The notes below the pieces were generated by a model, which did not search any database, was not told the DNA's origin, and was given only the letters and a program-made list of their open reading frames with translations. From assembly GCF_036365525.1 (NCBI RefSeq), contig NW_027142032.1:434001-498000 (forward strand): 64,000 nucleotides of DNA, in the 5' to 3' direction. The position numbers and the translations under genes are program-made. Below, in pieces: positions 4,951 through 63,109 of the stretch (its first letter is position 1; every line of letters starts with the position of its first letter). The stretch comes from Heterodontus francisci. Its lineage: Eukaryota.

Positions 4951-4954
4951 TGAC

Positions 4955-27545: not shown

Positions 27546-28168
27546 GCTAAGAAAATATTTCATTTCTCTCGAACACCTCAATTACATCATGCATGAATCT
27601 TCTGGATGTTCCCTAATCTAGCGCTTGAATCCTTCGAGTGAATTTGTGCTGCACCTGCTCAATGGACAACATATCATTCCCGAGGTGTTGTGCCCAGCAT
27701 TGAATGTGGTCTAAACACAGCGACATTAAACTCGAGCACAACTTCAACCCTTTGTTTACCAGCCCCCTTGAATTTCAATATAATATTGCATTCGCTGTTT
27801 CCATTTATGGTGGATATTTACACTGTATTTTTAAATTGTTTCTTAGTGCAGGGCGATAAATGCCTTTGCTCTTATAATCTTCCAAGATTCTTTATTTCCT
27901 AAATTGCAGCATTGACTGCAGTTCACATCTACTTCATTGGCAGTGATGTGGTTTTGTCTCGTCTGATTTACTGAAAGGCGCTGGAGAAATGTAAATTTAC
28001 TTTCCCTTTTTTAATCAACTTCCAAAATCACTTATTGTGGAATCTGTGTGCCCAATGCAAACACTTCCTTTCAACATAGGGCAATCAGTATTGAGTTATC
28101 AACCTGCTACCGCAAATTAAATTCTGATAGTCCATTTCTAACTGTGCTGTCCATTTATTTTTGCACAG

Positions 28169-28462
28169 ATTGGCGAACACCACCAGTGACATTTCTTGAT
28201 CAACCAACTGGGGTGTATGCTGTTGCAGAGATGGTCGTCATTACCTGCACTGCGACCGGAGATAATCGGGATAAAACCATTTACTTTTACAGAGATGATC
28301 AACGGCTGTACACCGATCAAATCATCACAAAGGGCAACATTGGAACATTTCAGGTTGCTCGTGTAAACCAAGGAGGACGGTACCAATGTATATAGGTAAA
28401 ATACATCTAAGAGATGCTGTTAGGTTCCCAACTCAGAGAGGCTGTGACAGTGACTGTAGCAG
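28169..28462 (+). pseudogene. Ig-superfamily receptor pseudogene, Ig exon A
   Basis: Acceptor ttgcacag, then phase-1 DWRTPPVTFLDQPTGVYAVAEMVVITCTATG...TIYFYRD...GGRYQCI*VKYI*EMLLGSQLREAVTVTVA. Two Ig cysteines are present, with two in-frame stops and a lost donor. Confidence 0.8.
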
Positions 28463-29621: not shown

Positions 29622-29676
29622 ATTACCTCCAAAAACCATCAATATCCCTGGACCTTCCAGATAGAGTATTTGTGAA
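29622..29676 (+). pseudogene. Ig exon B, 5' half (cut by a transposon)
   Basis: YLQKPSISLDLPDRVFV is an Ig A-strand motif paralogous to the start of exon A. It ends at ATTTGTGAA where the transposon begins and continues in frame into 63368-63110 (-). Confidence 0.75.
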
Positions 29677-30707
29677 CAAAGTGATTCCTGACAACGCTGG
29701 CCAGCGCCGACGTCATCAGGCTGTGCCACGGTGCGCAGATGCGCAGACGGACTCCTGCACTCTGCGCATCCGCTGTGTTCCGGCTTGTCAGGACCCGTTT
29801 GCGCATGCGCTGGTGGCGTCATCGCGTTACGTTGTCTTCCTCGGACAACGGGCCAGGTTGGACTCTGCGCATGCGCTTCATGCAACGCCACCGGATATTC
29901 ACGCATGCGTCAATCTTCCGATATTCATGCATACGGAGCTGGAGGGAAAGGCTGAATGGAGAGGGCCGAATGGGAGAGGCCGTAGAGAGCCGCGGGGAGC
30001 GAGCGGCCGAAGACCTTGGTGTCGCCGGGTGCAGGGACTGGCCGCTAAGTCTTTTGCTGTTGTGTTTATGGCGCATGCACAGAAACGGGCATTCCTCTTC
30101 CGCTCCGCTGCTCCCCCCCACTCTCTCCCCTCCCCCCCGCTCCCTCCCTCTCTCTCCCTCCCTCTCTCTCCCTCCCTCTCTCAGCTCTTCCCCCTCCCTC
30201 CCTCAGCTCACCCCCTCAGCTCTCCCCCTCCCTCCCCAGCTCTCCCCCTCCCTCCCTTAGCTCTCCCCCTCCATCCCTCTCTCTCTCCCTCCCTCAGCTC
30301 TCCCCCTCCCTCCCTCAGCTCTCCCCCTCAGCTCTCCCCCTTCCCTCCCACAGCTCTCCCCTTCCCTCCCTCAGCTCTCCCCCTCAATCCCTCAGCTCTC
30401 CCCCACTTCCCTCCCTCCCTCAGCTCTGTCCCACCCATCCCCAACCCTCGTCGCCGCCACTGCTATCCCCGCGCTGGTCTCCCCGCCCCCCGCGCTGCTC
30501 ACCCCGGCCCGCTCCACTATCTCACTCCGGCCATTGTTTGCTGCCACGTATTTGTTAGGTTGCCTCTGTGTGGTTCTTCGACCAGCGGCATCTTGAGTCC
30601 TGGCAGCTGCTACAGTCGCAAGCTGTGACGTTTTAGTGGCACATGCTGTATTTGCGCATGTGCCAAAACAGCGCTACCTACCGATAGCGTTGTCAACAAA
30701 TGCAGTC
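29677..30707 (+). mobile_element. Non-autonomous DNA transposon with subterminal inverted repeats (Zisupton- or MULE-like), copy 1
   Basis: TGACAACGCT (29689) and AGCGTTGTCA (30686) each lie about 12 nt inside the ends. CpG-rich, with repeated GCGCATGCGC-like palindromes and an internal C-rich minisatellite. A second inverted copy starts at 63369, and an 8-9 bp TSD is recoverable from the split exon. Confidence 0.8.
30110..30430 (+). repeat. C-rich minisatellite (ccctcagctctccccct)n inside the transposon
   Basis: Direct inspection; the complementary G-rich array is at 63650-63980. Confidence 0.9.
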
Positions 30708-32520
30708 CATTGAAATTGGCCTTCCCCCAATTCAGTACCTTTATTTCCGGCCCGTCTTTGTCCTTTTCCATAACTAACTTAAATCTTACTGAATTTTGGT
30801 CACTGTCACCTAAATGCACCCCACCGACACTTCTGCCATTTGTCCAGCTTCGTATCCGAGGATTAGGTCCACGACTGCCCCTTCTCTTGTAGGACTTTCT
30901 ACGTACTGGCTCAAAAAGCTCTCCTGGATGCATTTTAACAACTCTGCCCCCTTTAAGCCTTTTACACTAAAACTATACCATTAAATATTCAGAAAGTTGA
31001 AATCCCCTGCTATTATTACCATATTATTATTGCACATCTCTGAAATTTGCCTCCATATCTGCTCCTCTATCTCACCCTGAATGTTTGGAGGCCTGTAGTG
31101 CACCCGCAGCCAACTGATTGCCCCCTTTTTGTTTTTAACTTCTACCTATACGGCCTCATTTGAGGAACCTTCAATGATATCGTCCCTCCTTACTGCAGTA
31201 ATTGACTCCTTGATCAGCAGTGCAACACCACCTCCTCTTTTATCCCCTCACCTTTCACGCCTAAAGTTTCGATATCCTGGAATATTAAGCTGCCAATCCT
31301 GCCCCTTTCTCAACCCTGTCTCTGTGATAGCATCAATATCATAATGCCATGTGCAAATCAACGCGCTCTATTCATCTGCCTTGCTAGCAAAACTCCTTGC
31401 ATTGAAATAGATGTAATCCAGCCTTACACTTTTCCCTTGTGCCTTAACAGGTCGATATTTGTTCTGCCTTCCAGCCTGACTCGGTTCTCTTCTGTATATG
31501 ACGGTGCATCACCCCCTACTGTACCTCCAGTCTGTATCCCATTCACCTGCCAAATGAGTTTAACCGCTCCCACCCCCAACCCCCCACCCACCACTTCCGT
31601 CACAGCACTAGCAAACCTCCACGCAAAAATGTTGGTCCCGTTCTGGTTCAGGTGCGACCCGTCCATCTTTTTCTTGACCACCTTTGCCAGAAACAGATTC
31701 AGTGATCCAGGAAACTAAAGCTCTCCCTCCTGCACCATCTCTTCAGCCACGTATACGTCTGCTCTATCCTCCTATTCTAATACTCCCTAGCACCTGGCTC
31801 CGGGGGTAATTCAGCGATTGCAACCTTTGAGGTCCTGCTTTTGAATCTGCTACCTAGCTCCCTAAATTCTTGCTGCAGGGCCTCATGCCACTTTCTACCT
31901 ATGTCATTGATAGCAATGTGAACCTCTGACTGTTCACCCTCCTCCTTTAGAATGTCCTGCAGCCTCTCCATGACATCCTTGACCCTAGCATCAGGGAGGC
32001 AACATATCATCCTGGAATGAAGTTTGCGGCCACACAAACTCCTATCTGTACCCCTTGAGATAGAACCCCCATCACTGCAGCACTTCCACTCTTTTTTTCT
32101 TCCCTGCTGTGCAGAAGAGCCATCCGTGGTGCCACGATCTTGGTTATTGCTGCTTTCCCCTGGGAGGTCACGCCCCCCAAACAGTATCCAAAGCGGTAGC
32201 GGTTTGAGAGGGGGATGGCCACAGGGGACTCCTGCACTACCTGCCTGCGTCAACTACTCTTCCTGGTAGTCACCCATCCATTTTCTGCCTGTGCAGCCTT
32301 TAGCTGCGGTGTGACCACCTCACTAAACGTGCTATCCACGACGTCCTCAATATCGCAGATGCTCCACGGTGAATCCACCTGCAACTCCAGCTCAGTAATG
32401 CGGGTAGCAAGTAGCTGCAGCTGGATCTACTTCCTACACACATCGTCGTCAGGGACACTGGAAGCTTTTCCCACATAGTGCAAAAGGGAAATATTACGAG
32501 GCTGAGCTGTCCTGCCATGA
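30708..32520 (-). mobile_element. CR1 LINE 5' half (ORF1 zinc-finger/esterase plus ORF2 endonuclease), truncated at the transposon end
   Basis: ORF1 MAGQLSLV..CTMWE and the esterase-like RGTDRSLCGRK..RMICCLPDARVKDV..NDIGRK. ORF2 HLGDSDQNSVRFKLVMEKDK..LNWGKANFNG stops exactly at 30708. Confidence 0.9.
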
Positions 32521-32827
32521 CTTACCCTTAGATTAATTAGTTACTCCCTTAATTAAAAAGATACTAATTACACAAAGGGCCTTGTTGTATTCCAAACGTT
32601 ACCCACTACAATCTAAATTACACTAATTAAAAAACAAAACAAACAAGGGTATTACTCACTTGAAGTCTTTTTTCAAACAAAAAAAAAACACTTTCTCTTA
32701 CTTTTTTTAGCTCTTATAATTGACTAGCAGCTGTTACTTACCCAACCAATCACATTGCAGATTTCCAGGGATGTTACTGTAAGTCTTTTTTCCCCTCTTC
32801 TTTGGAGTCTCAGAGCGTGCCCAGAGA

Positions 32828-33450
32828 CACATATAAATAGCGGGGCTACAAGAGCAGGTCAGAGGCTGGGAATACTGCGATGAGTAACTCACCTCCTGAA
32901 TCCCCAAAGCCTCTCCACAATCTACAAGGCACAAGTCAGAAGTGTGACGAAATGCTCTCCACTTGCCTGGGTGGGTGCAGCTCCAACAACACGCAAGAGG
33001 CTCGACACCATCCAGGACAAAGCAGCCCGTTTGATTGGCACCCCATCGCCACCTTCAAAATGCACCCCCTCCACCACGAATACACAATGGCAGCAGTATG
33101 TTCCTTTTACAAGATGCACTGTAGCAATCACCGAGGATCCTTCAACAGCACCGCCCAAGCCTGCGACCTCTACCACCTAGAAGGGCTAGGACCGCAGATG
33201 TATGGAAACACCACCACCTGAAAGTTTCCCTCCAAGGCACACACCATTCTGATATGGAGCTATATCGGGCATTGCTTCACTGTCACTGGGTCAAAATGCA
33301 AGAACTCCCTTCCTGACAGCACTCTGGGTGTACCTACCCCACACAGACTGCTGCGGTTCAAGAAGGCAGCTCACCACCATCTTCTCAAGGGCAATTAGGG
33401 ATGGGCAAAAAATACTGGCCTCGTCAGCGACGCCCACATCCCATGAAATA
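32828..33450 (+). mobile_element. L2/CR1-clade LINE (second family) 3' fragment
   Basis: SPLAWVGAAPTTRKRLDTIQDKAARLIG and the family 3' tail. Confidence 0.9.
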
Positions 33451-34059
33451 ATAGGGAAAGTAAAGCAATAGGCCATTCGCTCCAACTAGTCAGTACCATT
33501 GTTTGCACTCCACACCAGTCTCTTCCCACACTTTACACCTCATGTCTGCTTTTTACCCAGTCCTTCCACTCCATTGTCTCTCAGGCAATCACCCAAGATC
33601 AACTGGAATGAAGCTAAACAACTTCCTTCAACCACTTTCTGTGGTTGTGTGTTCCTCCTAGAAAAAAGGAGGAATATGTTTCCAATGACATGTCCGTTTT
33701 AACCACATTTAGAAACTGTAACTCACTGACAAAAGAACTAGAAGTGAAATGTGGAGAATAGTTTGACTCAGAGTGATGTTATGATCTGGAACTGAAAAGC
33801 CGGTGGAATCACATTCCATAGGAAGTTTCAAAAGGTGATTGAAAATGTGCTGGAAAAGTATGCAGGGATATGGGCAAATAAAAAGGATGTTGGACTAAAT
33901 TTGACAACTCTTAGACAGAGCAGAGGCTGTGAGATTCAATGATTCTAATAAAATGAGTACTTCGAGACGTCCATTTCTACATAGTATCAATAATCCATGG
34001 CGAATACCAAGACATGCTCTTGGTATGACACAAAACTGAGCTTCAGGTTGTTCAACTAC

Positions 34060-34630
34060 ATGGAGCATCCCATTTATGGCTAAATGACACTGTCCCTGGA
34101 ACAGAAAGGAAAGGTGCTGGCTGAAGTGTGTGTAAAAACGCTATGAATATTTACAGGTCCCCACACGCGGCCACACAATGGGAATCGGAGCTCAATTCGG
34201 GAATAGATGGAAGCCTTAATGGTGGGAATTGTGACTGTAAAATATGGAGATTCAGTGAACACATTAGACAGCAACAACACTGTGTTTGTTGAAGGGCATT
34301 CGTCTCGGCCCACTCTGCAGATCTATATCTCAGAGATGTGCTCACATCTATCAGACTGAATGAGGAAGTGGAGTTAATATAGATTCCTAGATGTGGACAC
34401 TAACTGAATTAATTACCAGAAACGTTTACTTGTACAGACAGTACAACCACACGCTCACAAATATCATAAAGAGCCTTAAGTCGAATATAAATTGGAAAAG
34501 AGACTGCAAATTAAGCTAACAGTCTGAAAATCGCCAGTATTAAAGAGTGCAGTAATAGCAAGAAGGCATCATAGTGGAGGCAGCGGTTTCAACTGGAAGG
34601 CGCTTCAGTTTCAAGAAACAGGAAATGAGT
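34060..34630 (-). promoter_or_regulatory. Promoter plus leader module, copy 2, with candidate 36-nt mini-exon (34060-34095)
   Basis: The minus strand aligns with 21235-21700 (aactgaagcgccttccagttgaaaccgc; ccacttcctcattcagtc). ATG at 34299 gives MPFNKHSVVAV*. Downstream is acceptor tttcctttctgttccag, 36 nt, then gtagtt. Confidence 0.5.
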
Positions 34631-34869
34631 CACTGACAGTGACGCAGTGACTCAGAACCAACGGAGTCTGAAAATATATTCATTAGAATATCCACAGCCT
34701 TTGTAGCTAAATCTCTCCCCCTAATTTCTGTCTCCAAATCTCTTGAAAATGGTAATTCCCCAATGCCACCGCCCCCCCCACCCCCCTCCCACCACAGCCA
34801 CCATGAAGAAAAGCCCACCCCTCTATCTGATCATCTTTGAGTGCTGGTATTGTGTGAGTTAGATGTTTC

Positions 34870-37566
34870 AGTAAGAACAGAGAAGATGGTAAAAGGGGGG
34901 GGGGGGCGTTGTGGCTTTGTTAATCAAGGAGGGTATTGCAGCGGCAGAAAGGACGTTTGAGGACTCGTCTACTGAGGTAGTGTGGGCCGAGGTTAGAAAC
35001 AAGAGAGGGGAGGTCACCCTGTTGGGAGTTTTCTATAGACCTCCGAATAGTTCCAGAGATGTAGAGGAAAGGATAGCGAAGATGATTCTCGACAGGAACG
35101 AGAGTAACAGGCTACTTGTTATGGGGGACTTTAACTTTCCAAATATTGACTGGAAATACTATAGTTCGAGTACTTTAGATGGGTCAGTTTTTGTCCAGTG
35201 TGTGCAGGAGGGTTTTCTGACACAGTATGTAGACAGGCCAACCAGGGGCGATGCCACATTGGATTTGGTACTGGGTAATGAACCCGGCCAGGTGTCAGAT
35301 TTAGATGCAGGTGAGCACTTTGGTGATAGTGATCACAATTCGGTTAGGTTTACCTTAGCGATGGGTAGGGACAAGTATATACCGCAGGGCATGAATTATA
35401 GCTGGGGGAAAGGAAATTGTGATGCGATTAGGCAAGATTTAGGATGCGTTGGATGGGGAATGAAACTGCAGGGAATGGGCACAATCGAAATGTGGAGCTT
35501 ATTCAAGGAGCAGCTACTGCGTGTCCTTGACAAGTGTGTACCTGTCAGGCAGGGAGGAAGTTGTTGAGCGAAGGGAGCCGTGGTTTACCAAATAAGTTGA
35601 AGCGCATGTCAAGAGGAAGAAGAAGGCTTATGTTAGGATGAGACGTGAAGGCTCAGTTAGGGCGCTTGAGAGTTACAAGCAAGCCAGGAAATATCTAAAG
35701 GGAGAGCGAAGAAGAGCGAGGAGAGGACACGAGAAGTCATTGGCGGATAGGATCAAGGAAAACCCTAAGGCTTTCTATAGGTATATAAGGAATAAAAGAA
35801 TGACTCGAGTGAGATTAGGGCCAATCAAGGATAGTAGTGGGAAGTTGTGTGTGGAATCAGAGGAGATAGGGGAAGCGTTAAATGAATATTTCTCGTCAGT
35901 ATTTACAGTAGAGAAAGAAAATATTGTCGAGGAGAATACTGAGATACAGACTACTAGGCTAGATGGTATTGAGGTTCACAAGGAGGAGGTGTTAGCAATT
36001 TTGGAAAGTGCGAAAATAGATAAGTCCCCTGGGCCAAATGGGATTTATCCTAGGATTCTCTGGGAAGCCAGGGAGGAGATTGCAAAGCCTTTGTCCTTGA
36101 TCTTTATGTCGTCATTGTCGACAGGAATAGTGCTGGAAGACTGGAGTATAGCAAATGTTGTCCCCTTGTTCAAGAAGGGGAGTAGAGACAGCCCTGGTAA
36201 TTATAGACCTGTGAGCCTCACTTTGGTTGTGGGTAAAATGTTGGAAAAGGTTATAAGAGATAGGATTTATAATCATCTTGAAAAGAATAAGTTCATTAGC
36301 GATAGTCAGCACGGTTTTGTGAAGGGTAGGTCGTGCCTCACAAACCTTATTGAGTTTTTCGAGAAGGTGACCATACAGGTGGATGAGGGTAAAGCCGTGG
36401 ATGTGGTGTATATGGTTTTCAGTAAGGCGTTTGGTAAGGTTCCCCACGGTAGGCTATTGCAGAAAATATGGAAGTATGGGATTGAAGGTGATTTAGAGCT
36501 TTGGATCAGAAATTGGTGAGCTGAAAGACAGAGGGTGGTGGTTGATGGCAAATGTTCATCCTGGAGTTTAGTTACAAGTGGTGTACCGCAAGGATCTGTT
36601 TTGGGGCCACTGCTGTTTGTCATTTTTATAAATGACCTGGATGAGGGTGTAGAAGGGTGGGTTACTAAACTTACGGATGACACGAAGGTCGGTGGAGTTG
36701 TGGATAGTGCAGAAGGATGTTGTAGGTGAGAGAGGGACATAGATAGGCTGCAGAGCTGGGCTGAGAGATGGCAAATGGAGTTTAATGCGGAAAAGTGTGA
36801 GGTGATTCAGTTTGGAAGGAGTAACAGGAATGCAGAGTACTGGGCTAATGGGAAGATTCTTGGTGGTGTAGATGAGCAGAGAGATCTAGGTGTCCAGGTA
36901 CATAAATCCCTGAAAGTTGCCACAAAGGTTAATAGGGGTGTTAAGAAGGCATATGGTGTGTTAGCTTTTATTAGTAGGGGGATCGAGTTTCGGAGCCACG
37001 AGGTCATGCTGCCGCTGCACAAAACTCTGGTGAGGCCGCACCTGGAGTATTACGTGTAGTTCTGGTCACCAAATTATAGGAAGGATGGGGAAGCTTTGGA
37101 AAGGGTGCAGAGGAGATTTAATAGGATGTTGCGTGGTATGGAGGGAAGGTCTTACGAGGAAAGGCTGAGGGACTTGAGGTTGTTTTCGTTAGAGGGAAGG
37201 AGGAGGAGAGGTGACTTAATAGAGACATATAAGATAATCAGAGGGTTAGATAGGGTGGATAGTGAGAGTCTATTTCCCCGGATGGTGATGACAAACACGG
37301 GGGGACATAGCTTTAGGTTGAGGGGTGATAGATATCGGGCAGATGTTAGAGGTAGTTTCTTTACTCAGAGAGTAAAAGGGGCGTGGAACGCCCTGCCTGC
37401 AACAGTAGTGGACTCGCCAACTTTAAGGGCATATAAGTGGTCATTGGATAGACATAAGGATGAAAATGGAATATTGTAGGTCAGATGGTTTCACAGGTCG
37501 GCCCAACGTCGAGGGCCGAAGGGCCTGTACTGCGCTGTAATGCTCTATGTTCTATGTTCTATGTTA
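34870..37566 (+). mobile_element. CR1 LINE, 5'-truncated, relatively young ORF2 (endonuclease + RT)
   Basis: Long ORF pieces: [57 protein letters not shown] and TDDTK. Ends in a (ctatgtt)n tail. Confidence 0.95.
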
Positions 37567-37821
37567 CTTGACCTGACGTCAGCAGGTGCTAACTGGAACG
37601 TCAGCAATCCAACAGGCTCACATGTCCTCCTGATAAAATGCACCATCCTCCAAATCATGTACATTGGCAAAATTGAACAGTGGGTTATAAAGCTGACATA
37701 TCAGCATTTACTTCAACTTATCCAACAAGGAATTCAGGAGACAATTCTTCAAAGAGTGGTCAGAAAGTGGAACATAATAGAACATGTGACATGAAGGCAG
37801 ATTAGAAATACAATAAAAATT

Positions 37822-40445
37822 AGAACAAAGAACAAATAACGAAGAAAATTGCAGCACAGGAACAGGCCTTTCGGCCCTCCAAGACTGCGCCAATCCAGAT
37901 CCTCTATCTAAACATGTCGCCTATTTTCTAAGGGTCTGTATCTCTTTGCTTCCTGTCCATTCATGTATCTGTCTAGATACATCTTAAAAGACGCTATCGT
38001 GCCCTCGTCTACCACCTCTGCTGGCAACGCATTCCAGGCACCCACCACCCTCTGCGTAAAGAACTTTCCACGCATATCCCCCCTAACCTTTTCCCCTCTC
38101 ACTTTGAACTCTTGACCCCAAGTAATTGAATTCCCCACTCTGGGAAAAAGCTTCTTGCTATCCACCTTATCTATACCTCTCATGATTTTGTACACCTCAA
38201 TCAGGTCCCCCCCTCAACCTCTGTCTTTCTAATGAAACTAATCCTAATCTACTCAACCTCTCTTCATAGCTAGCGCCCTCCATACCAGGCAACATCCTGG
38301 TGAACCTCCTCTGCACCCTCTCCAAAGCATCCACATCCTTTTGGTAATGTGGCGACCAGAACTGCACGCAGTATTCCAAATGTGGCCGAACCAAAGTCCT
38401 ATACAACTGTAACATGATCTGCCAAACCTTCTACTCAATACCCCGTCCGATGAAGGAAAGCATGCCGTATGCCTTCTTGACCACTCTATTGACCTGCGTT
38501 GCCACCTTCAGGGAACAATGGACCTGAACACCCAAATCTCTCTGTACATCAATTTTCCCCAGGACTTTTCCATTTACTGTATAGTTCACACTTGAATTGG
38601 ATCTTCCAAAATGCATCACCTCGCATTTGCCCTGATTGAACTCCATCTGCCATTTCTCTGCCCTACTCTCCAATCTACCCAAATTCTGCTGTATTCTCTG
38701 ACAGTCACCTTCACTATCTGCTATCCACCAATCTTAGTGTCTTCTGCAAACTTGCTAATCAGACCACCTATACTTTCCTCCAAATCATTAATGTATATCA
38801 CAAACAACAGTGGTCCCAGCACGGATCCCTGTGGAACACCACTGGCCACACGTCTCCATTTAGAGAAACTCCCGTCCACTGCTACTCTCTGTCTTCTGTT
38901 GCCCAACCAGTTCTTTATCCATCCAGCTAGTACACACTGGACCCCATTCCCCTTCACTTTCTCCATCAGCCTACCATGGGGATCCTTATCAAACGCCTTA
39001 CTGAAGTCCATGTATATGACATCTACAGCCCTTCCCTCATCAATAAACCTTGTCACTTCCTCAAAGAATTCTATTAAGTTGGTAAGACATGACCTTCCCT
39101 GCACAAAACCATGTTGCCGATCAGTGATAAGCCCATTTTCTTCCAAATGGGAATAGATCCTATCCCTCAGTATCTTCTCCAGCAGCTTCCCTACCACGGA
39201 CGTCAGGCTCACCGGTCTATAATTAACAGGATTCTCCCTGCAACCCTTCTTAAACAAGGGGACAACATTAGCAATTCTCCAGTCCTCTGGGACCTCACCC
39301 GTGTTTTAGGATGCTTCAAAGATATCTGTTAAGGCCCCAGCTATTTCCTCTCTCGGTTCCCTCAGCAACCTGGGATAGATCCCATCCGGACCTGGGGACT
39401 TGTCCACCTTTATGCATTTTCGATTAACCAGCACTTCCTCCCTCCTTATGCCGACTTGACCTAGAGTAATCGAACATCTGTCCCTAACCTCTACATCTGT
39501 CATGTCCCTCTCCTCGGTGAATACCGATGCAAAGTGCTCGTTTAGCATCTCACCCATTTTCTTTGACTCCACGCATAACTTTCCTCCTTTGTCCTTGAGT
39601 GGGCCAATCCTTTCTCTGGTCACCCTTTTGCTCCTTATATATGAATAAAAGGCTTTGGGATTTTCCTTAACCCTGTTTGCTAAAGATATTTCATGACCCC
39701 TTTTAGCCCTCTTAATTCCTCGTTTCAGATTGGCCCTTCATTCCCGATATTCTTTCAAAGCTTCGTCTTTCATCAGCCGCCTAGACCTTATGTATGCTTC
39801 CTTTATCCTCTTTGCCACACTCACAATTTCTTCTCTTATCCATGGTTCCCTGATCTTGCCATTTCTATCCCTCATTTTCACAGGATCATGTCTCTCCTGC
39901 ACACTAATCAACCTCTCTTTAAAAGCCGACCACATATCACATGTGGATTTACCTTCAAACAGCTGCTCCCAATCTACATTCCCCAGCTCCTGCCGAATTT
40001 TGGTATAGTTGGCCTTCCCCCAATTTAGCACTCTTCCTTTAGGACCACTCTCGTCTTTATCCATGAGTATTCTAAAACGTCCGGAATTGTGATCACTATT
40101 CTCAAAGTGGTCCCCGACTAAAATTTCAACCACCTGGCCGGGCTCATTCCCCAACACCAGGTCGAGTATGGCCCCTTCCCGAGTTGGACTATTTACATAC
40201 TGCTCTAGAAAACCCTCCTGGATGCTCCTTACAAATTCTGCTCCATCTAGACCTCTAACACTAAGTTAAACCCAGTCAATGTTGGGAAAATTAAAATCTC
40301 CTATCACCACCACCCTGTTGCTCCTACATCTTTCCATAATCTGTTTACATATTTGTACCTCTATCTCACGCTCGCTGTTGGGAGGCCTGTAGTATAGCCC
40401 CAACATTGTTACCGCACCTTTCCTATTTCGGAGTTCTGCCCATAT
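37822..40445 (-). mobile_element. CR1 LINE, 5'-truncated
   Basis: Minus-strand ORF2 pieces from the endonuclease to KRYRPLENRRHV*. Same subfamily as 14230-15150. Confidence 0.95.
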
Positions 40446-40797
40446 TTCAGACTGATGTTAGTGACATCAAATGCTTAAACTTGCATAAACACTTAACCTC
40501 AGACAAATAGGAAATTAGCCCCTAACAGTAAGAACAGTGCATGTGAACCAAGAGTATGTTTAAACAGATAACATTAAAATGTACTGTGACAATCTTTCTT
40601 TCATTTTTTTTTCAACCGAAGCTCATAGTAATGAATTCCGAAGGCCACCACAATTAGAGAAATAACAAATCTTACTCCCAGGCAATTATTTACTGATAAT
40701 ATTGCATTCAAATAATTTGAGATAGGTAGAAATATTTAATATTCCATCTGATTGATTTTAAACCATAAAGAAGTAGACTTATTTAGGAAACCGTGTC

Positions 40798-42710
40798 AAG
40801 AACAAACAAAGAACAAAGAACAGTACAGCACAGGAACAGGCCATTCGGCGCTCCAAGCCTGCGCCGATCTTGATGCCTGCCGAAACTAACACCTTCTGCA
40901 CTTCCGGGTCCCATATCCCGCTATTCCCTTCTTATTCAAATATTTGTCAATATGTCTCTTAAACGTCGCTATCGTACCTGCTTGCAGCACCTCCCCGGCA
41001 TCAAGTTCCAGGCACTCACCACCCTCTGTGTAAAAATCTTCCTCGCACATCCCCTCTAAACTTTGCCCCTTGCACCGGAAACCTATGTCTCCTAGTAACT
41101 GACTCTTCCACCCTGGGAAAAAAGCTTCTGACTATCCACTCTGTCCATGCCGCTCATAACTTTATAAACCTCTATCATGTCGCCCCTCCACCTCCGTCGA
41201 TCCAGTACAAACAATCCGAGTTTTTCCAACCTCTCCTCATAGCTAATGCCCTCCAGACCAGGCAACATCCCGGTAAACCTCATCTGTACCCTCTCCAGAG
41301 CCTCCACGTCCTTCTGGTAGTGTGGCGACCATAATTGAATGCGATATTCTAAGTGTGGCCTAACTAAGATTCTGTACAGCTGCAACATGACTTGCCAATT
41401 TTTATACTCGGTGCCCCAACTGATGAAGGCAAGCATGCCGTATGCCTTCTTGACTACCTTATCCACCTGCGTTGCCACTTTCAGTGACCTGTGGACCTGT
41501 CCAACCAGATCTCTCTGCCTGTCAATACTCCTAAGGGTTCTGCCATTTCCTGTATACTTCCCACCTGCATTAGATCTTCCAAAATGCATTACCTCACATT
41601 TGTCCGGATTAAACTCCATCTGCCATTTCTCTGCCCAAGTCTCCAACTGATCTATATCCTGCTGTATCCTCTGACAATCCTCATCACTATCTGCAACTCC
41701 ACTCACCTTTGTGTCGTCCGCAAACCTACCAATCAGACCAGCTAGATTTTCCTCCAAATCATTTATATATACTACAAAGAGCAAAGTTCCCAGCACTGAT
41801 CCCTGCGGAACACCACTAGTCACATCCCTCCATTCAGAAAAATACCCATCCACTGTTTCCCTCTGTTTTCTGTGACTGAGCCAGTTTGTATCCATCTTGC
41901 CAGCTCACCTCTCATCCCGTGTGACTTCACCTTTTGCACCAGTCTGCCATGCGGGACCTTGTCAAAGGCTTTACTAAAGTCCATATAGACAACATCCACC
42001 GCACATCCCTCATCAATCATCTTCGTCACTTCCTCAAAAAACTCAATCAAATTATTAAGACACGACCTCCCTTCACAAAACCATGTTGTCTCTCGCTAAT
42101 AAGTTCGTTTGTTTCCAAATGGGAGTAAATCCTGTCCCGAAGAACCCTCTCCAATAGTTTCCCTACCACTGACGTAAGGCTCACCGGCTTATAATTTCCT
42201 GGATTATCCTTGCCACCCTTCCTATCAAAGGAACAACATTGGCTATTCTCCAGTCCTCTGGGACCTCACCTGTTGCCAATGAGGATGCAAAGATTTCTGT
42301 CAAGGCCCCAGCAATTTCTTCCCTTGCCTCCCTCGGTATTCTATGGTCGATCCCATCGGACCCTGGGGACTTATCTACCTTAATGCTTTGCAACACACCC
42401 AACACGTCTTCCTTTTTGACAATGAGATGACTGAGACTATCTGCACTCCCTTCGCTAGGCTGATCATCCACCAAGTCCTTCTCCTTGGTGAATACTGATG
42501 CAAAGTAATCATTTAGCACCTCGCCCATTTCCTCTGACTCCACGCATAGCTTCCCATCTCTGTCCTTGAGTGGGCCAACCCTTTCCATGGTTACCCTCTT
42601 GCTCTTTATGTATGCATAAAAAGCCTTGGGATTTTCCTTAATCCTGTTTGCCTATGACTTTTCATGACCCTTTTTAGCCCTCCTAACTCCTTTCTTAAGT
42701 TCCTTCCTGA
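40798..42710 (-). mobile_element. CR1 LINE, 5'-truncated
   Basis: 267-aa RT frame ([21 protein letters not shown]) and (ttctttg)n tail. Confidence 0.95.
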
Positions 42711-42765
42711 GAGATTGGATAATGCATACAAACCGCACTGCAGTTTGAACAGAGGAGGGCAGTGC

Positions 42766-43165
42766 CTGAGCGGATTAAGATACATTTTGAGAACAAAGGC
42801 AGCAACAGCACTGAGCTTATTTAAGGACATTCGTACACCCCACTCTGCTGATCTATGTCTCAGTGAAATTCTCAACCCTAGCAGGCTGAATGAGGATGTG
42901 GCATTAACATAAATTCCTAGATCTGAAATCCGCCTGAATTATTCACCAGAAGGGTTTTGTTGTTGCAGACAGTACACGCAGGCATTCACAAATATGACCA
43001 AGCACCAGAAATTCGGATGCAACATGGAAAATGAAATGATAAATAAGCAACCAAGTGGAAAATGCTCAGCACTGAACAGAACAGTAACAGCAGTTCGGTG
43101 TTATAAAAAAGGGCTGTGGTTTCCACTTGTAGGAGAGTTAGTACAAAGAAAGAGGAACTTAGCGT
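42766..43165 (-). promoter_or_regulatory. Promoter plus leader module, copy 3
   Basis: ATG at 42830 gives MSLNKLSAVAAFVLKMYLNPL. RUNX-like TGTGGTTT at 43115 and ETS-like AGAGGAAC at 43151 have the same spacing as in copy 1. Confidence 0.55.
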
Positions 43166-44413
43166 CCAGCAGAAAGGGCAGTGCCAGTGCAAAATATCTC
43201 AATATATATTTACTGGAATATCCACTGACTACGTATATTTTCCCAATGGATGCCGAACATTGCATGCTGCATTTTTTATAGAAAAGATTTACAGAATCTT
43301 GCAGCACAGAAGCAGGCCACCCACCCGTTGTGCCCATGCTGGTTCCTTGAAACAGCTGTCCAATATGCTCCTACATCCCAACGTAATCCCCATTAACCAG
43401 ACAAATCAGTTCCCTTCAAGTTCAAATCCAGTTGTCTTTTCAAAGTCCTGATGGAATCTGCTTCCACCATTTCTTTAGGTCGTACATTCCAGACCGCACT
43501 AGCACTCAGTGTGAGAATGATTCTTCTCATTTCACCTCCAGTTCTTTTCCAAATACATTAAATAGTTGACTCGTGGTTACTGAGCAACATGTAACTGGAA
43601 CGACCTAATAATTATGAATATCTCTGTTCGATCTCTCCTTAGCCTCCTCTGTTCTACCGAGAACAAATCCCGTTTCTATAGATCCCCCAAAGTAACTGAA
43701 GTGTTTCATCTCTGGTACCAATCACAGGTCGAACAATATTTAACTCAACGCATCTGGAAAATCTCAAAGCCCATCAACTTAAATGGTGCATCACCCGACA
43801 CAATGAGACACAAATAACACTGTTTGACTTCCATTGCTCCATCCTATCCAACATTCACCTCACAAGTACGGGGACATCTTGATATTCTCATGGAATATCA
43901 AATTTCATTCTGGGAGGTCTTTAATCGCCCTCTATTCCGCCATGTTATTCACTCTTCATAAACTGGACTAGTAATCCAGAGGCTGATGATGATGAGCCTT
44001 GAATTCATAATCCGACCTGGGCAGCTGTGGCCATTTATTCTCAATGAATAAATAAACATGGAACAATAATGATTTAAAAATCTACATCAGTAATGGTGAC
44101 GCTGAACATGCCAGCTTATAATTTCAACCCATATGGTTCACTAATGTCTTTCGGGGAAGGAGAACTGCCGTCCTTACTTGATAATTGGATACAAAATTAG
44201 CTTGGTGATCGGTAGTGGAGGGTTGTTTTTCAGATTGGGGCTGGTGGCCAGTGTTGTGCCGTGGGGGTCAGTGATTGGCCCTCTGTTGTTTGTCATATAT
44301 ATTAATGACTTGGATGTGAATGTAGGGGGCATGATTAGTAAGTTTTCAGATTACACCAAAATTGGTGGTAGACAGTGAAGAAGGTTGTTTAAGGTATCAA
44401 CAGGATACAGATC

Positions 44414-44415
<2 letters not shown>

Positions 44416-44460
<45 letters not shown>
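44416..44460. repeat. (CT)n microsatellite
   Basis: Direct inspection. Confidence 0.95.
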
Positions 44461-44463
<3 letters not shown>

Positions 44464-44656
44464 CCCAATCAACTTAAATCGCACATCATCCAAAAATAAT
44501 CATACACAGATAAAACTGATTTGCTTCCATTGCTCCATCCTATCTAACATTCAACTCACAAGTATGGGAACATTAAATATCATTCTGGGAGATCATTAAT
44601 CGCCCTCTATTCCGCCGGGTTATTCACTCTTCATAAACAAGACTAATAATCCAGAG

Positions 44657-44755
44657 ATAAAAACAAGAAATGCTGGAACCACTCAGCAGGTCTGGCAGCA
44701 TCTGTGAAAAGAGAAGCAGAGTTAACGTTTCGGGTCACTGACCCTTCTTCGGAAC
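44657..44755 (-). mobile_element. Penelope-like element 3' terminal fragment
   Basis: Near-exact reverse complement of 55092-55190. Confidence 0.85.
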
Positions 44756-44956
44756 GTTTCTGCTAATTGAAGGCAGATTTGAAATACAATGTTAATTAGA
44801 AAGGAAATGGAAGATATTTCATACTGTTGATAGCAGTGACATTATTTCACTAATAATGTTGTATTCAACCAATTTAAAAGTGATAGAGATAGTTACTACT
44901 TCATCTAATTGATTTTTAAACATAAACCACACTAGTTTTACACGGGATGACAGTAC

Positions 44957-45405
44957 CTGAGGGGGTTGAGAGATAAATTGTGAGCACAAAGGCAGCTGCA
45001 GCACTGTGTTTATTGAAGGATATTTGACTCCACACCCACCCACCCACCCCCACCACCGCACCCCCCACCCGCACCCCTCACCCCACACTGCAGATCTATG
45101 TCTCAGTAAAATGCTGAACTCGAAAAGGCTGAATGAGGAAGTGGAATGAATATCAATTCCGACATCTGAAAGCTGCGTGATATATTCACCAGCAGGATTT
45201 AGTTGTTGCAGACAATGCAGACACACGCTCAGAAATGTGACAAAGTGCCTGAAATTCGGATGTACGAGGGGAAAAGGAATGACAAATAAGCAAACAAGCG
45301 GTAATGGTCAGCACTGAACAGAAAAGTAACAGCAGTTAGGTGTTATAAAGAAAGGTTTTGGTTTCCACTTGTAGAAGAATTAGTTCAAAGAAAGAGGGAC
45401 TTAGT
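44957..45405 (-). promoter_or_regulatory. Promoter plus leader module, copy 4
   Basis: Start mutated (ATA at 45023), then SFNKHSAAAAFVLTIYLSTPS with phase-1 donor g|gtactg. Upstream CACTTCCTC is present. Tandem paralog of 42.7-43.9 kb. Confidence 0.55.
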
Positions 45406-46090
45406 GTCGAGCAGAAAGGGCAGTTTCACCATACAAAATATCTAAATATATATTTACTAGAATATCCACTGACTATATATTTTCCCAATGGATGTCGAGC
45501 ATTGCATGCTGCATTTATTTATAGAATAGATTTACAGAATCTTACAGCACAGAAGGATTCACACTTCTTCCACATGCTTGCTCCTTGAAACAGCTTCCCA
45601 ATATCCTCCCACATCCCAGCTTCATTCCCATAGCCATATAAATCAGTCCCTTTCAAGAACATATCCAGTTGCCTTTTCAAAGTCCTGATGGAATCTGCTT
45701 GCACCATTCATTCAGGTAGTACATCCCAAATCACACTAACCATCAATATGAGAATAGTTCTGCTTATTTCCCCTCTAGTTCTTCTACCAATATTTTAAAT
45801 CGTTGACCATTGGTCAGTGACCCACTTTTGATTGGAAGCAGTTTATCTCTGTTTTCTCCAACACACGCCCTAGTAATTGTGAATAGCTCAGTTAGGTCTC
45901 TCCTTAGCCTCCGCTGCTCTACAGAGAACAGACCCAGTTTCTATACTCTCCCAAAGTAACTGAAGTATTTCATCTCTGGTACCAATCAAAACATCGGCAA
46001 TCACCGATGGAACAGTATTTAACTCAACTTAATGCCTCTGGGAAACCTCAAATCCCATCAACTTAAATCATGCATCATACAAAATAATCA

Positions 46091-46426
46091 GCCACAGTGG
46101 CACAATGGTTAGCACCGCAGCTTCACAGCTCCAGCGACCCAGGTTCAAATCTGGGTACTGCCTGTGTGGAGTTTGCAAGTTCTCCCTGTGTCTGTGTGGG
46201 TTTTCTCCGGGTGTTCCGGTTTCCTCCCACATGCCAAAGACTTGCAGTTTGATAGGCAAATTGGCCATTATAAATTGCCCCTAGTACAGGTAGATGGTAG
46301 GGAAAAAAGGGTAGGTGGGGATGTGGTAGGAATATGGAATTAGTGTGGGATTAGTATAAATGAGTGTTTGATTGTCGGCACAGACTCGAAGGGCCTGTTT
46401 CAGTGCTGTATCTCTAAATAAATAAA
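46091..46426 (+). mobile_element. V-SINE (HE1-like)
   Basis: Head, V core and CR1-like tail as in the other copies. Confidence 0.92.
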
Positions 46427-48149
46427 ACTGTTTTACTTCCATTGTTCCTTCCCATTCCTCTCCTGAGAGGCAAATTCCCCTGGAAGTTAGTTCTAAGGAC
46501 AGCGACTCTCTGCCTTGTCTTGATCAGAATGGACAGTTGCAGTGTTTGAGCTCAGACACTGTTTGTCTGTGAACAGTCTGATTAAAGAAGGCGAAAACAT
46601 AGTCCCTAACAGTATCCTCAGCGGACATCCATTCACCAACACTTTACAATAGGGCCACCAGGTCACTATGAGCAGTGGCCACTATCTCTGCTTCTTGCCC
46701 TGACCTCAATCACTCCGCTTTCCTGAAAACTCATCCCACTCTCACTCCCTCATCGTTACTCACTGAGAATTGAGCACAGTCAAGCATCTGCTCCAATAGC
46801 TTTCCACTTTCGACTGCTGCACACCAAACTAGCTCTGGAGTTCATCGACTGAGCTACTGGAGATTGGACACCTCAGTCCCACTCTCCCACTGCCATCTGC
46901 CCACTCAGCTACTTCACAGATCCGAAATCCAGTCACATTGGTATAAAATTGTATCACCACTCACCAAATAGCAGTGTTATGGCGGCTCTGTCCATTTTCT
47001 AATGGTAGCTGCTTCGAGAGATAAGGGCTGTAAGCAACCACCACTGAGTCTCTTTCGACAGCTCACAGAATTTGAAACCATAAAGCTTTGAATGGGAGTG
47101 GATGCAGAGGCTGGGAGGAAATGAAGTGGTCGTCCCAGTTAAAGCCACAACACTGAGTTATGCACAATAGTGAGTAAGATAGTGATGTGAACATTACAAG
47201 ATCCAAAATGAAAGTCTTTGAATATTAGGCAATGATGACAGGATGAAGGAGCTGGAATAGACTCCGCACTCAGAACAACACAGAAGCAAATGTATGTTTG
47301 GTTGGGACCTTGCTTTCATCGTGGTTCGGAGTCTCATATTGGGAAGACCCTATCCCCACTTCGTGTCAACATAATACACTCAAAGGGCATGAGCAAGACA
47401 ACAAAATGCAGCACAGCAAAATCGCACACAGAGCGCCCCATCCTGTATCAATCATTGCTTTGCTGTAGTCAATGTGCACGGCGATGTTTCATGTGATCCC
47501 CATATTGACCCGGATGACTGTTGGTAATAATTATTTGAGCTCGACAATCTTCCTCCAACACCATCACATCGATCCTGAGCAATGAAGCCAGGAACTAATC
47601 TCATGATACGAAAGTACTGTGTTCCACCTCTCCTCAGTAGAACCGAACTGGATGAAATCTTCTAGCCTTTGATGAAATGTTCGACACAGTTAATGATAGT
47701 GTAGAAACGCGTCATGTTCATTTGGAACATTTGAATTAAGTTCGAGATGAGAATCTGTACAGATATGTTCCTTTCCATCTCCTTTTTAAACTCAAGTGCC
47801 TTGTGTATCAATGTCAGCAATTGACTGGGAGCTCATATTCCCCGAAGAGAAGGGACGTAGGGTGGAATTGAATAAATGCAGTTATAACCCTCACTCAAAA
47901 TCAGAGGCAATTTAATCAAGAACCAAAATCTCCCTGTTAGATCAGGAACTTCACCGAGTGTGAAGCTTAAGTAATAATCACAAAACCCAGAAACATTTGC
48001 AAAAATGGCTGAGTTTAATACTTAATCCATTTTATTTTCAGTGAAGAATCTGTCAGTGCCTTGACTGGAAGTTAAAATGAACTGTTCCAATTAACTGAAC
48101 TGAACCTGATACATTGTGTGTCTCGTTACCTGTCCATCAGCAACAAAGT

Positions 48150-48550
48150 GTGTTTATAAAGCACCATCTGGGCAGTTCATCGTCCCACAGCGTTTTACAG
48201 GATGGATCATCAAACAGAATTTCACCCCGAGATATGTTAAGGGATATTAGAACAGGTGAGCAAATTATTTTCAAACGGTCAGACAATCAGGAGAGTCTTG
48301 AAGGAGGAGAGAATGTTATAGAGGTTGCGAGGTTCAGGGAGGGAATTCCAGAGCTTAGGGTCCCAGACAGCTGAGGGAACGGCCGACTATGGTAAGTGAT
48401 CATATTGGGGATATGGAATCGGCCAGAATTCCAGGGGCACAGAGATCTCAGAGGGTTGTATGGGCTGAAGGAGGTTCCTGATGTAGCGATAGGCGTGTCC
48501 CTGTAGGGAGTTGCACAAGGCTGAGAATTCGAAGATGCAGATCATTGGAT
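48150..48550 (-). mobile_element. Old L2-type LINE 3' remnant
   Basis: gggagggaattccagagcttagggtcccagacagctgagg and tttataaagcacc...cccacagcgttttaca match L2-type 3' ends. Confidence 0.55.
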
Positions 48551-50232
48551 TTGTGATCTAATAATCATCCTTTCCTGTTCCAATTAGCAGAAGCATCTAC
48601 AATTCGATCAGAGTTGTGTGAGTTAATCATCGAATTCAGGAGAGGGTTTTCAATGTGTAAGTGACAATGTTCATCATTGAACTGTCACTGTGCAGCTTAA
48701 TTGGGATGAGAAAGACATGTTTTATTGTGGAAAGGCCAAACGTTTCAACCGGTGATTGGGACTGACATCAGTCTGTCATTTTCAGGTGTAGCCTTTTTGG
48801 ATAGTTTGATTTGTCAATACTTCCAATCACAATCCTATTGGTGAAATAATTTAACCATTGCTGCAACTGTCAATATGTTTTCAATGCAGCTGAATACAGT
48901 TTATATTCGAAAGCAAAATATGGAGAATGCTGGAAATCTGAAAGGGAAACATCCCATGTTGGAATTATTCAACCAACAAGCAGCATATGTGGAGAAACAG
49001 AGTTGTCTTTTCAGCGTGAGGATCTCCACATTGAACTGGTAGAAGTTGGAGATTTAAATAATTAGAAACACATATTTTGCCAGTTTATAAACAAGCACAG
49101 TATTCTGGCTCTTGATAAACTGTTAAATCTCTAACTTCCGACGAATGTTCATCAGTATCAAACCTTCAAGCTCTTTCTCACTCCATGGATGCTGCCTAAT
49201 CTGTGAGATTTTCCAGCATTTTCAAAGTTCATGTTCACATAATTAACAAACAAAACGCAGTGACATCTTCATGAATTTAGCACATTTTTATTTCTCAGTC
49301 CTTTACAGTGTATTAACAGTTGGTATATACAGTGAGCTGCTTTAGATATGTTTTATAATTTGAATTAGTTCAGCTCTGAAATGAATCATTTGCAATAATG
49401 AATAGCTAATAACAGTTTTGCCTATATAGGCAAATAAAACCCTTTTGAGTAGCCAACATAATCTATTTATCTGGTTAAATTGTGGCCCTCAATGAAGTCG
49501 GTATTATCCACCTCGTGGTAACTGTGGGGCGCTTTGTGTAGAATGAACAACACACAGGGGAAATACCATAATGCAATGAGGGCACTGAGAATGGCGATTT
49601 TTTTATCATTAATTCAATTAAAAGCACATCACAGCACTGAGCGATATATCAATTCTTCAATTTGGGGGACGGATTTGTGCAGAATGTCGATGAATTTAGG
49701 AAGATTCGATTCTGTAAACCAAATATAATTTGCAACTGGATCCTTTCATTGTGTTATCCCAATTGCTTGACACATGCAACGTCACTAAGCTTTCGACATA
49801 TGGAGCAATAAACAAAGTGACCCAGTTTCCCCTCTGAATACAAATGTAACTATCATCGAACCATTAGTTTACCTCTCCCTCTGCCACCTGTGAAGGGAAG
49901 TTAAATATCTTCCTTCTTCTAGTTACACACATGGTCTGAAATGTTTTATTGCATCCTGATAATCGCCATTGTGAACAGGACACCAAGAAATCAATTAGTT
50001 CCTACGCAACATCAAATTCCAACCTGTCTGCTCACCTGGCACATTTTTGGCATCTTGGGCCATCTATTATCTCAATCCATTGGCCAACTTTAGTCAAACA
50101 GAATCGAGTTAAACAGCACCGTTAACTAAACTGCACCCTGATGTATTAGCCTTAAGTATTCTTCAAATTAACAAATTTAAACACTTCATTACTTCTAGCT
50201 GCAGTGCGTGTATCCACCTATCTACATTTCTG

Positions 50233-50387
50233 NNNNNNNNNNNNNNNNNNNNNNNNNNNNNNNNNNNNNNNNNNNNNNNNNNNNNNNNNNNNNNNNNNNN
50301 NNNNNNNNNNNNNNNNNNNNNNNNNNNNNNNNNNNNNNNNNNNNNNNNNNNNNNNNNNNNNNNNNNNNNNNNNNNNNNNNNNNNNNN
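50233..50387. other. Assembly gap (N run)
   Basis: Run of 155 N. Confidence 1.
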
Positions 50388-50999
50388 ATCTACTCATCTC
50401 TCTGTCTATCGCCCGATGTAAATGCAGTAGAACACATGTCATATAATTTACCAACTAGATTTTTGCCAACTCAAATCTGATGTAAATATATGCAAATTCA
50501 AACCAATAGCAATTCCAATAAAATGACAGTAAAGTAAAACTAAACTATGGGCTCAGCTCCAGGAAATCGGGACAGGTCAATTTTCTGCAAGCATTGCGAA
50601 ACAAATTTGTTCCCTAACACAGATGCAGTGCAACAATTCAACTGCATTTGAGAAATTCCAAAACTGACTACTATCAAAATTAACATATCAGTTTGGATAT
50701 GTATCATTCTGTATGATGACTCTGTCTATCTCTCTCAGACACATACCTTGAAAAATATCCATAGAGTGAGGTAGACATATTGATGTAACGTTATCTGACA
50801 TCGATATCAGTTATTTCCTGTCTGGGGCAACAGCAAACTCTGCTCTGTAAAAAGCTTTCACGTTTACATAGCATCTTAAATCTAGGATATTCGCACTTCA
50901 GTCTCTTCATCACCACTGAGGAGAGAATACATTTCATCAGTAAAATAGCCTCTCAAAAGAAAAAAGAAAATGGTTATCAACAAGACTACTCAAGCATAT

Positions 51000-51752
51000 A
51001 GAGTCATACAGTTATACATCACAGTTACAGGCCCTTCGGCCCATCGTTTCTGTGCCGGCCATCACATCCATTCTGATTCCATTGTCCAGCACTTGGCCCG
51101 CAGTCTTGTTGCTATGGCGTTTCAAGTGCTCGTCTAAATATTCCTAAATGTTATGAGAGTTCCTGCCTCACCATCTCTTCAGGAAGTGCGTTACAGATTC
51201 CAACCAGCCTCTAAGTGATTTTTCCCCTCAAAACGCCACTAAACCCCCTGCCACTTGCCTTAAATCTATGCCCCCTGTTTGTTGACCCCTTCGCTAAGGC
51301 AAAAAAATGTTTCTTCCTATCTAACCTACCAATGCCCCTCATAATTTTGTATACCTCAATCATGTCCCCCTCAGCCTTTTCTGCTCGAAGGAAAACAACC
51401 CTAGCCTTTTCAATCTCTCTTCATAGCTGAAATACTCCAGCCCAGGCAGCATCCTGCTGGATTTCCTCTGCACCATCTCCAGTGCAATCCAATCCTTCCT
51501 ATAGTGCAGTGCCCAGAATTGAACACAGTACTCCAGTTGTGGCCTAACTAGTGTTTTATACAGCTCCATCATAACGTTCCTGCTGTTACATTATATGCCT
51601 TTGCTAATAAAGGCAAGTATTCCATATGCCTTCTGAACCATCTTGTCGACCTGTTCTGCCTTCAGTGATCTGTGGACAAGTACACCAAGGTCCTTCTGAC
51701 CATCTGTACTTCCTAGGGTCCTACCATCTATTGTATATTCCCTTGCCTTGAT
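51000..51752 (-). mobile_element. CR1 LINE 3' fragment
   Basis: ELYKTLVRPQLEYCVQFWALHYRKD and CR1 tail. Confidence 0.9.
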
Positions 51753-53313: not shown

Positions 53314-53669
53314 TTTTTTTTAGATTAGAGATACAGCACTGAAACAGGCCCTTCGGCCCACCGAGTCTGTGCCGAACATCAACCACCCATTTATACTAAT
53401 CCTACACTAATCCCATATTCCAACCAAACATCCCCACCTGTCCCTATATTTCCCTACCACCTACCTATACTAGTGACAATTTATCATGGCCAATTAACCT
53501 ATCAACCTGCAAGTCTTTTGGCTTGTAGGAGGAAACCGGAGCACCCGGAGAAAACCCACGCAGACACAGGGAGAACTTGCAAACTCCACACAGGCAGTAC
53601 CCGGAATCGAACCCGGGTCCCTGGAGCTGTGAGGCTGCGGTGCTAACCACTGCGCCACTGTGCCGCCCC
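53314..53669 (-). mobile_element. V-SINE (HE1-like), well preserved
   Basis: Complete head with A/B boxes (tggcgcagtgg; ggttcgattcc), V core, tail and terminal A run. Confidence 0.95.
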
Positions 53670-53711
53670 TTTTTAGCAATATTGATTCCACCTCCAGTTA
53701 ATATATCATGT

Positions 53712-53803
53712 TTAATCTATTCCCAGGATAACTGCAGTCTCAAAGAGGATGAAAGCGGAGAGACACAGACGATTTGGGATTGAATTGGATTTTAAAGAGA
53801 AAC
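53712..53803 (-). pseudogene. Candidate transmembrane exon of the Ig receptor (Arg-containing TM)
   Basis: Strong acceptor ttctgttccttctatattcttccag, then phase-1 GFSLKSNSIPNRLCLSAFILFETAVILGID*. Same strand and phase as the upstream Ig exons. Confidence 0.45.
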
Positions 53804-59257: not shown

Positions 59258-59260
59258 ATT

Positions 59261-59606: not shown

Positions 59607-59620
59607 ATTCTGTCATATTA

Positions 59621-63045: not shown

Positions 63046-63109
63046 AATACGTATGTTTTTATGTTCAACAATGTCCTATGTTATTAGCGTGAAAGATATT
63101 GAACCTCAC

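Follow-up and report, generated by a model that had tools for sequence, protein, structure and literature searches.

Two copies, A and B, of a short non-coding DNA transposon lie in opposite orientation at the two ends of a 32,661-nt segment of the Heterodontus francisci genome, and ectopic recombination between these inverted copies probably flipped the intervening 32.7 kb (a reading to which we assign a probability of roughly 0.65). The window, i.e. the whole stretch of DNA that was analysed (64,000 nucleotides), presents in its assembled form a rearranged order in which one half of an immunoglobulin (Ig) domain exon is followed by copy A and a truncated LINE, and the other half of the exon is found at the far end of the segment, followed by copy B (Ig half, A, LINE ... 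Ig half, B). Homologous copies in opposite orientation are thus present at both breakpoints. The features on which this reading is based are the following:

29677..30707, plus strand: copy A, non-autonomous DNA transposon (start at 29676 if the target-site duplication, TSD, is of 8 bp), delimited by the rise in contig depth and by the divergence of A and B directly after 30707
63369..64000, minus strand: copy B, oriented opposite to A and extending past the window end, matching A from 30090 to 30707
30708..63368, no strand: putatively inverted segment of 32,661 nt, recognised by the exchanged TSD 1, the split exon and the cut LINE
50233..50387, no strand: assembly gap of 155 N inside this segment, seen in the window sequence
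29668..29676, plus strand: left copy of TSD 1, ATTTGTGAA, adjoining the left end of copy A
63360..63368, minus strand: right copy of TSD 1, ATTTGTGAA, at the right end of copy B
30708..30716, plus strand: predicted TSD 2, CATTGAAAT, in the right flank of A, its partner being expected left of copy B, beyond the window
29627..29676, plus strand: 5' part of the interrupted Ig-domain exon of type b, which precedes the 3'-half match in register in 38 of 44 homologs
63114..63368, minus strand: 3' part of the interrupted Ig-domain exon, frameshifted close to its end (45 matches, tblastn pieces)
28168..28461, plus strand: upstream Ig exon (domain type a) with two stops (Pfam Ig_3, 3.6e-7)
61314..61594, minus strand: Ig exon of domain type a on the downstream side, spread over three frames, recognised by homolog comparison
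30708..31450, minus strand: fragment of a LINE ORF2 endonuclease ending at the element, recognised by tblastx to the LINE piece at 34893-35429

Sequences flanking the two copies

The sequence ATTTGTGAA is present to the left of copy A (29668-29676) and to the right of copy B (63360-63368), and not on both sides of A: ATTTGTGA(A) stands left of copy A only, the right flank of A being CATTGAAAT. The match extends over exactly 9 nt (10 fails); at a given fixed position, this 9-mer is expected by chance with a probability of 6.6e-6, and the window contains it three times. The first-pass annotation had credited copy A with a TSD of its own, which combined the flanks of two different copies into one duplication, and for this reason it missed the probable inversion with the two copies as its breakpoints. 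Exchanged TSDs on inverted copies constitute the defining signature of a transposon-made inversion according to the excerpted text of PMC2775673. Only one of the two TSD pairs falls inside the window, and TSD 2 is seen once only because the left end of copy B lies beyond it. The two target sites (29668-29676 and 30708-30716) have TTG in common at positions 3-5, as well as an A at position 8, a sample of two being too small to define a preference.

The TSD reads as either 8 or 9 bp. Among the contig ends listed for the sequencing runs described below, 8 contigs in run X2 and 8 in run X4 have loose ends before 29677 with a non-matching base ahead, and a further 9 and 10 contigs have loose ends before 29675, the sequence being mixed and AT-rich at both points. 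Since an element start at 29676 would leave few contigs starting at 29677, these ends favour a TSD of 9 bp over one of 8 bp, though they do not prove it.

The reading frame to the right of copy B returned 45 protein matches in a HMMER search (best E of 4.6e-33), six of which were looked up and are annotated as Fc receptor-like 5, IGSF1-like or alpha-1B-glycoprotein-like; the closest five named homologs among these six are from sharks and the sixth is from a skate. In a register test, the 14 residues left of copy A were scored against the residues upstream of the right-half match in each homolog, 44 of the 45 being usable and one unusable. The left half placed in register beats all 10 shifted registers in 38 of the 44 (mean of 14.5 versus 1.5), the register not being favoured in the other six. 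Against the paralogous exon at 28168, the continuation across the B flank lifts the score from 21 to 52, a value that none of 2000 shuffles reaches; with the frameshifted paralog at 61590 the result is weak, 72 of 2000 shuffles doing as well. The 9-mer is found on both exon halves, and the corresponding residues are present once in the homologs; homologs P0009 and P0024 have the domain order a-b-a, which the locus shows only once 30708-63368 has been flipped back. Judged by these protein comparisons, the flanks left of A and right of B are the halves of one pseudogene exon of an FcRL5/IGSF1-like gene. Considering the two stops in the first exon and the frameshifts in the other two, this gene was probably dead already before the insertion. 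A word-indexed protein search with the exon half retrieved nothing among 35 candidates, a PDB search returned a weak generic Ig match only, and an Atlas search returned generic chordate Ig clusters.

A second-copy remnant of the intron and exon start preceding the broken exon, cut by a LINE piece, is located at 56004-56374 (minus strand) and suggests that the a-b domain pair has been tandemly duplicated. One contig in each run (depth 17-23) matches from 29630 onward and also a stretch ending at 29568, lacking the 61 nt between the two, and probably represents an Ig-exon paralog elsewhere in the genome.

At the other junction, the LINE fragment, which we take to be of the CR1 type, ends at 30708, while its relatives in the window continue past the corresponding point; the related piece at 34893-35429 carries the Pfam family Exo_endo_phos. 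No continuation of this LINE adjoins the left end of copy A, the downstream part of one relative giving two weak matches within 27500-30700, one in the minisatellite and one ~2 kb from the element.

The window contains several further features. A SINE-like repeat of ~345 nt is present in three copies of 87-92% identity (46093-46427, 53314-53667 and 59261-59608) and in partial copies at 2107-2353 and 3982-4277. A GIY-YIG fragment below the Pfam cut-off (54182-54709, plus strand) is presumably the end of a Penelope-like element. At 10196-11221 (plus strand) there is an open single-exon frame of 341 aa for a rhodopsin-family GPCR (Pfam 7tm_1, 8e-18), which we take to resemble the GPR139-like genes that are expanded in sharks.

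Origin of the rearranged order

According to the preferred reading, one copy inserted into the Ig exon of the FcRL5/IGSF1-like gene and duplicated ATTTGTGAA, as the sequence shows, while a close sister copy, which is found ~33 kb away in the LINE and in opposite orientation, may have arisen by local duplication; a crossover between the two would then have flipped the 32.7 kb and exchanged their TSDs. For such a reciprocal inversion, the left flank of copy B (minus strand) would end CATTGAAAT before CAAAGTG in the 9-bp case, or CATTGAAA before ACAAAGTG in the 8-bp case, and LINE ORF2 would continue in frame left of copy B. In inversion 2z3 of Drosophila buzzatii, attributed to Galileo in the excerpted text of PMC2775673, opposite transposon copies are likewise present at the breakpoints and their TSDs are exchanged; the locus described here differs from it in its 32.7-kb segment and shark-like host, in its 1-kb copies without long terminal inverted repeats (TIRs) and in having one TSD pair visible.

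The relation between the two copies bears on how they came to be there. Copy B is represented in the window by the part that matches A 30090-30707, its left 413 nt being located beyond position 64000, and shows 93.4% identity to A when gaps are counted, with 20 substitutions in 618 nt (3.2%) plus indels, so that the 'near identity' reported earlier was an overstatement. Over their final 112 nt the two copies do not differ at all, with a P of 0.014-0.018 under uniform decay. At 30092-30093, both copies carry a T (CATTCC) where the family loose-end consensus reads CACTCC, and at least 29 of the first 414 positions of copy A (~7%, left part) depart from the family majority, a figure that is not strictly comparable with the 3.2% between A and B because the two come from different regions. 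A and B look like fairly young sisters rather than identical copies, and the presence of 112 identical terminal nucleotides amid 20 substitutions fits a later exchange between them better than an even decay of copies that were identical from the start.

Among the competing explanations, the one that survives best, while being unlikely, is an assembly artefact, in which A and B would be ordinary insertions, each with its own TSDs, and the assembler would have taken the wrong path through the inverted repeats. The terminal stretch of 112 identical nt is a place where an assembler could switch copies, the 155-N gap lies within the segment, and no placed contig crosses the element; given that no contig or read placed on 29380-30090 crosses a whole copy, the phase of the flanks of copy A rests on the assembly. 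The junction between flank and element (29542-29703) is covered by single contigs in all three runs. Such a switch is opposed by the 20 differences in 618 positions and the indels that distinguish A from B, and also by the length of the repeat, a sequence of 1 kb being short enough to be spanned by mate pairs or long reads.

Hybrid element insertion, whereby ends from each sister chromatid of one donor would have inserted 33 kb away in one step, is ranked behind the artefact and is improbable. It would leave the same TSD pattern, with identical copies (PMC2775673, in excerpt), and the sister-like appearance of A and B (the shared T at 30092-30093, and 3.2% versus ~7% in different regions) is in its favour. 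It predicts, however, that identical copies decay evenly, which is at odds with substitutions that avoid the last 112 nt. Ectopic recombination between the inverted copies is accordingly retained as the preferred reading.

Structure and abundance of the element

The element itself is a 1031-nt, multi-copy, non-coding sequence that carries a 10-bp inverted repeat exactly 12 nt from both termini, with CAAAGTGATTCC at its left end and, as reverse complement, GACTGCATTTGT at its right end. Its internal features are:

29689..29698, plus strand: left subterminal inverted repeat, 12 nt inside the end, forming a perfect 10-bp pair with the right repeat
30686..30695, minus strand: right subterminal inverted repeat, 12 nt inside the end, forming a perfect 10-bp pair with the left repeat
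29830..29850, no strand: internal inverted pair with the 7-nt core GACAACG of the subterminal repeat (folding z = -1.95, weak)
30111..30421, plus strand: CT-rich minisatellite, the length of which differs between copies A and B in their comparison
30637..30665, no strand: hairpin lying inside the right subterminal repeat, its arms being 10 bp and its loop 9 nt long

The structural description given in the first-pass annotation is borne out in most respects. The ends are asymmetric, matching at 14 of 22 positions of which the outer 12 contribute only 4 and the next ten all 10, so that the 10-bp subterminal pair is indeed perfect. The 12/12 symmetry of this pair requires the element to start at 29677. 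When random 1031-nt stretches of the window were drawn, a match of at least 10 in the same register was obtained in 1 of 20000 draws, and a match in any register in 4 of 3000 stretches. The hairpin was found as described, with its 10-bp arms and 9-nt loop, and the last 83 nt of the element have a folding z of -3.74. Coding capacity is absent, as had been stated: among the 150 longest of the 239 stop-to-stop ORFs of at least 70 aa, those overlapping the element contain zero Pfam families, and Rfam gave zero matches across 29600-30800. A 353-aa frame that runs across the element was rejected as a gene, being devoid of a Pfam family and beginning in the flank. High CpG retention was likewise confirmed, the two unique parts of the element having observed/expected ratios of 1.06 and 0.89 versus 0.43 in the window. 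The motifs TGCGCA and GCGCATGCG are abundant in the element (29732-30078 and 30653), six of the ten TGCGCA sites of the window falling within copy A; we presume from their sequence that they resemble NRF1 sites.

The number of copies was approached by placing the contigs of three runs (one sample) and the reads of one other run on 29380-30090. In all three contig sets, depth increases from ~30-60 to 2500-5000 at 29668-29715, which puts it at 141-163 times the flank, a ratio that reaches 554-702 near 29980-30003; this ratio is not a copy number and is taken only as 'many copies'. The sharp left boundary at 29675-29677 is common to many copies, while loose ends behind 29719 and before 29929, together with skipped segments, represent sibling forms with other internal sequence. 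Words of the element were present at 62-67% in 4 of 24 runs (one sample, one study) and at 4-5% in 16 others, the latter being counted as no evidence, and the exact 22-nt left end was found in zero stretches of metagenome contigs. In the reads of run X21, depth across 29929-30090 is ~3000-4000 versus 40-80 at the left end, and ~1900 reads have another sequence ahead of 29929; this segment is shared either with a more abundant sibling family or with a capture-enriched repeat.

Affiliation of the element and its significance

These properties support the classification of the element as a non-autonomous, fairly young cut-and-paste DNA transposon of cartilaginous fish. A transposase encoded elsewhere would bind the 10-bp repeats recessed by 12 nt and cut at the ends, and insertion through a staggered cut would duplicate 9 (possibly 8) bp of AT-rich target. 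No transposase family was detected by Pfam among the 150 longest ORFs of the window, and the element, which behaves as a cut-and-paste transposon with a long TSD, is assigned to no superfamily, the mobilising enzyme being considered here from the ends and the TSD.

A Mutator-like enzyme is the foremost candidate, tentatively held, as a 9-bp TSD fits Mutator-like elements slightly better than Zisupton/KDZ elements (7-8 bp). In the excerpted text of PMC6446971, Mutator-like elements (MULEs) have TSDs of 8-11 bp, several groups having 9 bp, and TIRs that are long, short or absent; the 8-9 bp of the present element fall within that range. Its ends are comparable to those of the non-TIR Vandal and Rehavkus MULEs, in which TIRs are absent or short and degenerate, while a typical MULE has terminal TIRs of 14-500 bp; with 14 of 22 positions matching, and only 4 in the outer 12, the element fails the typical form and fits the degenerate one (PMC6446971, same excerpt). 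That excerpt doubts, as an open question, that true MULE transposases are present in vertebrates, and human Ricksha is listed as MuDR in Repbase (PMC5753468, in part).

The first-pass annotation had proposed a Zisupton-like non-autonomous family in a chondrichthyan, of which the non-autonomous nature, the fairly young age and the cartilaginous host stand, whereas Zisupton itself, with its 8-bp TSD, agrees less well with the favoured 9 bp. A derivative of KDZ/Zisupton with an 8-bp TSD and a start at A29676 is the second candidate and quite possible. Fish Zisupton is said to have short subterminal repeats, a feature that the 10-bp pair 12 nt inside the ends possesses. In the parts consulted of the KDZ literature, a likeness also exists in that these are fish DNA transposons with long TSDs, Kyakuja being without TIRs, and a difference in that the reported TSDs are of 7-8 bp versus 9 bp here. 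The excerpted text of PMC12730594 gives 8-bp TSDs for Zisupton and 7-bp TSDs without TIRs for Kyakuja, and the fungal KDZ consensus starts with C or G in 15 of 15 listed rows, like both ends of the element under the 9-bp reading. Against the 8-bp Zisupton reading are the 8 listed contigs in each of two runs that begin at 29677, the 12/12 symmetry with the same start, and the statement that teleosts are the only vertebrates having Zisupton (PMC4350176, in excerpt). A cichlid element with TSDs of 7-8 bp has been tentatively tied to Zisupton (PMC13652916, in excerpt), and KDZ1 of Cryptococcus has an 8-bp TSD and 236-bp TIRs (bioRxiv 10.1101/2024.08.15.608186, in part). The available parts of PMC7599744, PMC3424704 and bioRxiv 10.1101/2024.04.05.588311 held nothing further on the ends. 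An enzyme of any other kind is the least favoured of the three and rather unlikely.

Among other classes, a Helentron/DINE-1-like rolling-circle element is highly improbable. DINE-1 features are present in the form of subterminal repeats, an internal partial repeat, a microsatellite and a hairpin, but Helentrons leave the target site unmodified and terminate in T runs (PMC4067079, in excerpt), whereas here 8-9 bp of exon are duplicated, neither end is a T run, the hairpin is located inside the right subterminal repeat and a terminal stem-loop is absent; the TSD refutes this affiliation unless the duplication arose independently. Dada elements resemble the present one in having no TIRs, 9-bp subterminal inverted repeats and some copies with flanks from different loci (PMC3706591 and PMC8869645, in excerpt). 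A target-specific Dada was rejected, the TSD in those excerpts being of 6-7 bp within snRNA/tRNA genes versus 8-9 bp, an Ig exon and a LINE here, with no Rfam match. A solo LTR (TG...CA at the inner repeats) was rejected because both copies share the 12 nt that lie beyond the right repeat and the boundary lies at 29675-29677, and a SINE or LINE because a tail is absent at both ends.

A literature search, with Repbase and Dfam outside its scope, found no description of such an element in sharks, and the non-autonomous family is real and, by that literature, apparently undescribed. Both the family and the probable transposon-made inversion are known kinds of thing, and the mechanism is textbook. 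We consider it doubtful that the ends reflect a recently active transposase lineage new to cartilaginous fishes, be it a true vertebrate Mutator, a KDZ with a 9-bp TSD or an unnamed superfamily reading nothing but a 10-bp site recessed by 12 nt from dissimilar ends, with hundreds of copies rearranging an immune-receptor cluster. Few DNA transposons are described for the elephant shark, and Zisupton is reported only in teleosts (PMC4350176 and PMC5381603, in excerpt), and a fairly young multi-copy family of cartilaginous fish is therefore worth recording. As the gene was probably dead already, the biological effect of the rearrangement is likely small; the locus also offers, at base resolution, an example of a shark FcRL/IGSF1-like gene rearranged by two transposon copies. 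Used as bait, the element ends make testable both the restriction of Zisupton to teleosts (PMC4350176, in excerpt) and the possible absence of true MULEs from vertebrates (PMC6446971, in excerpt), and an assignment to either Mutator-like elements or Zisupton, if true, would extend the published host range.
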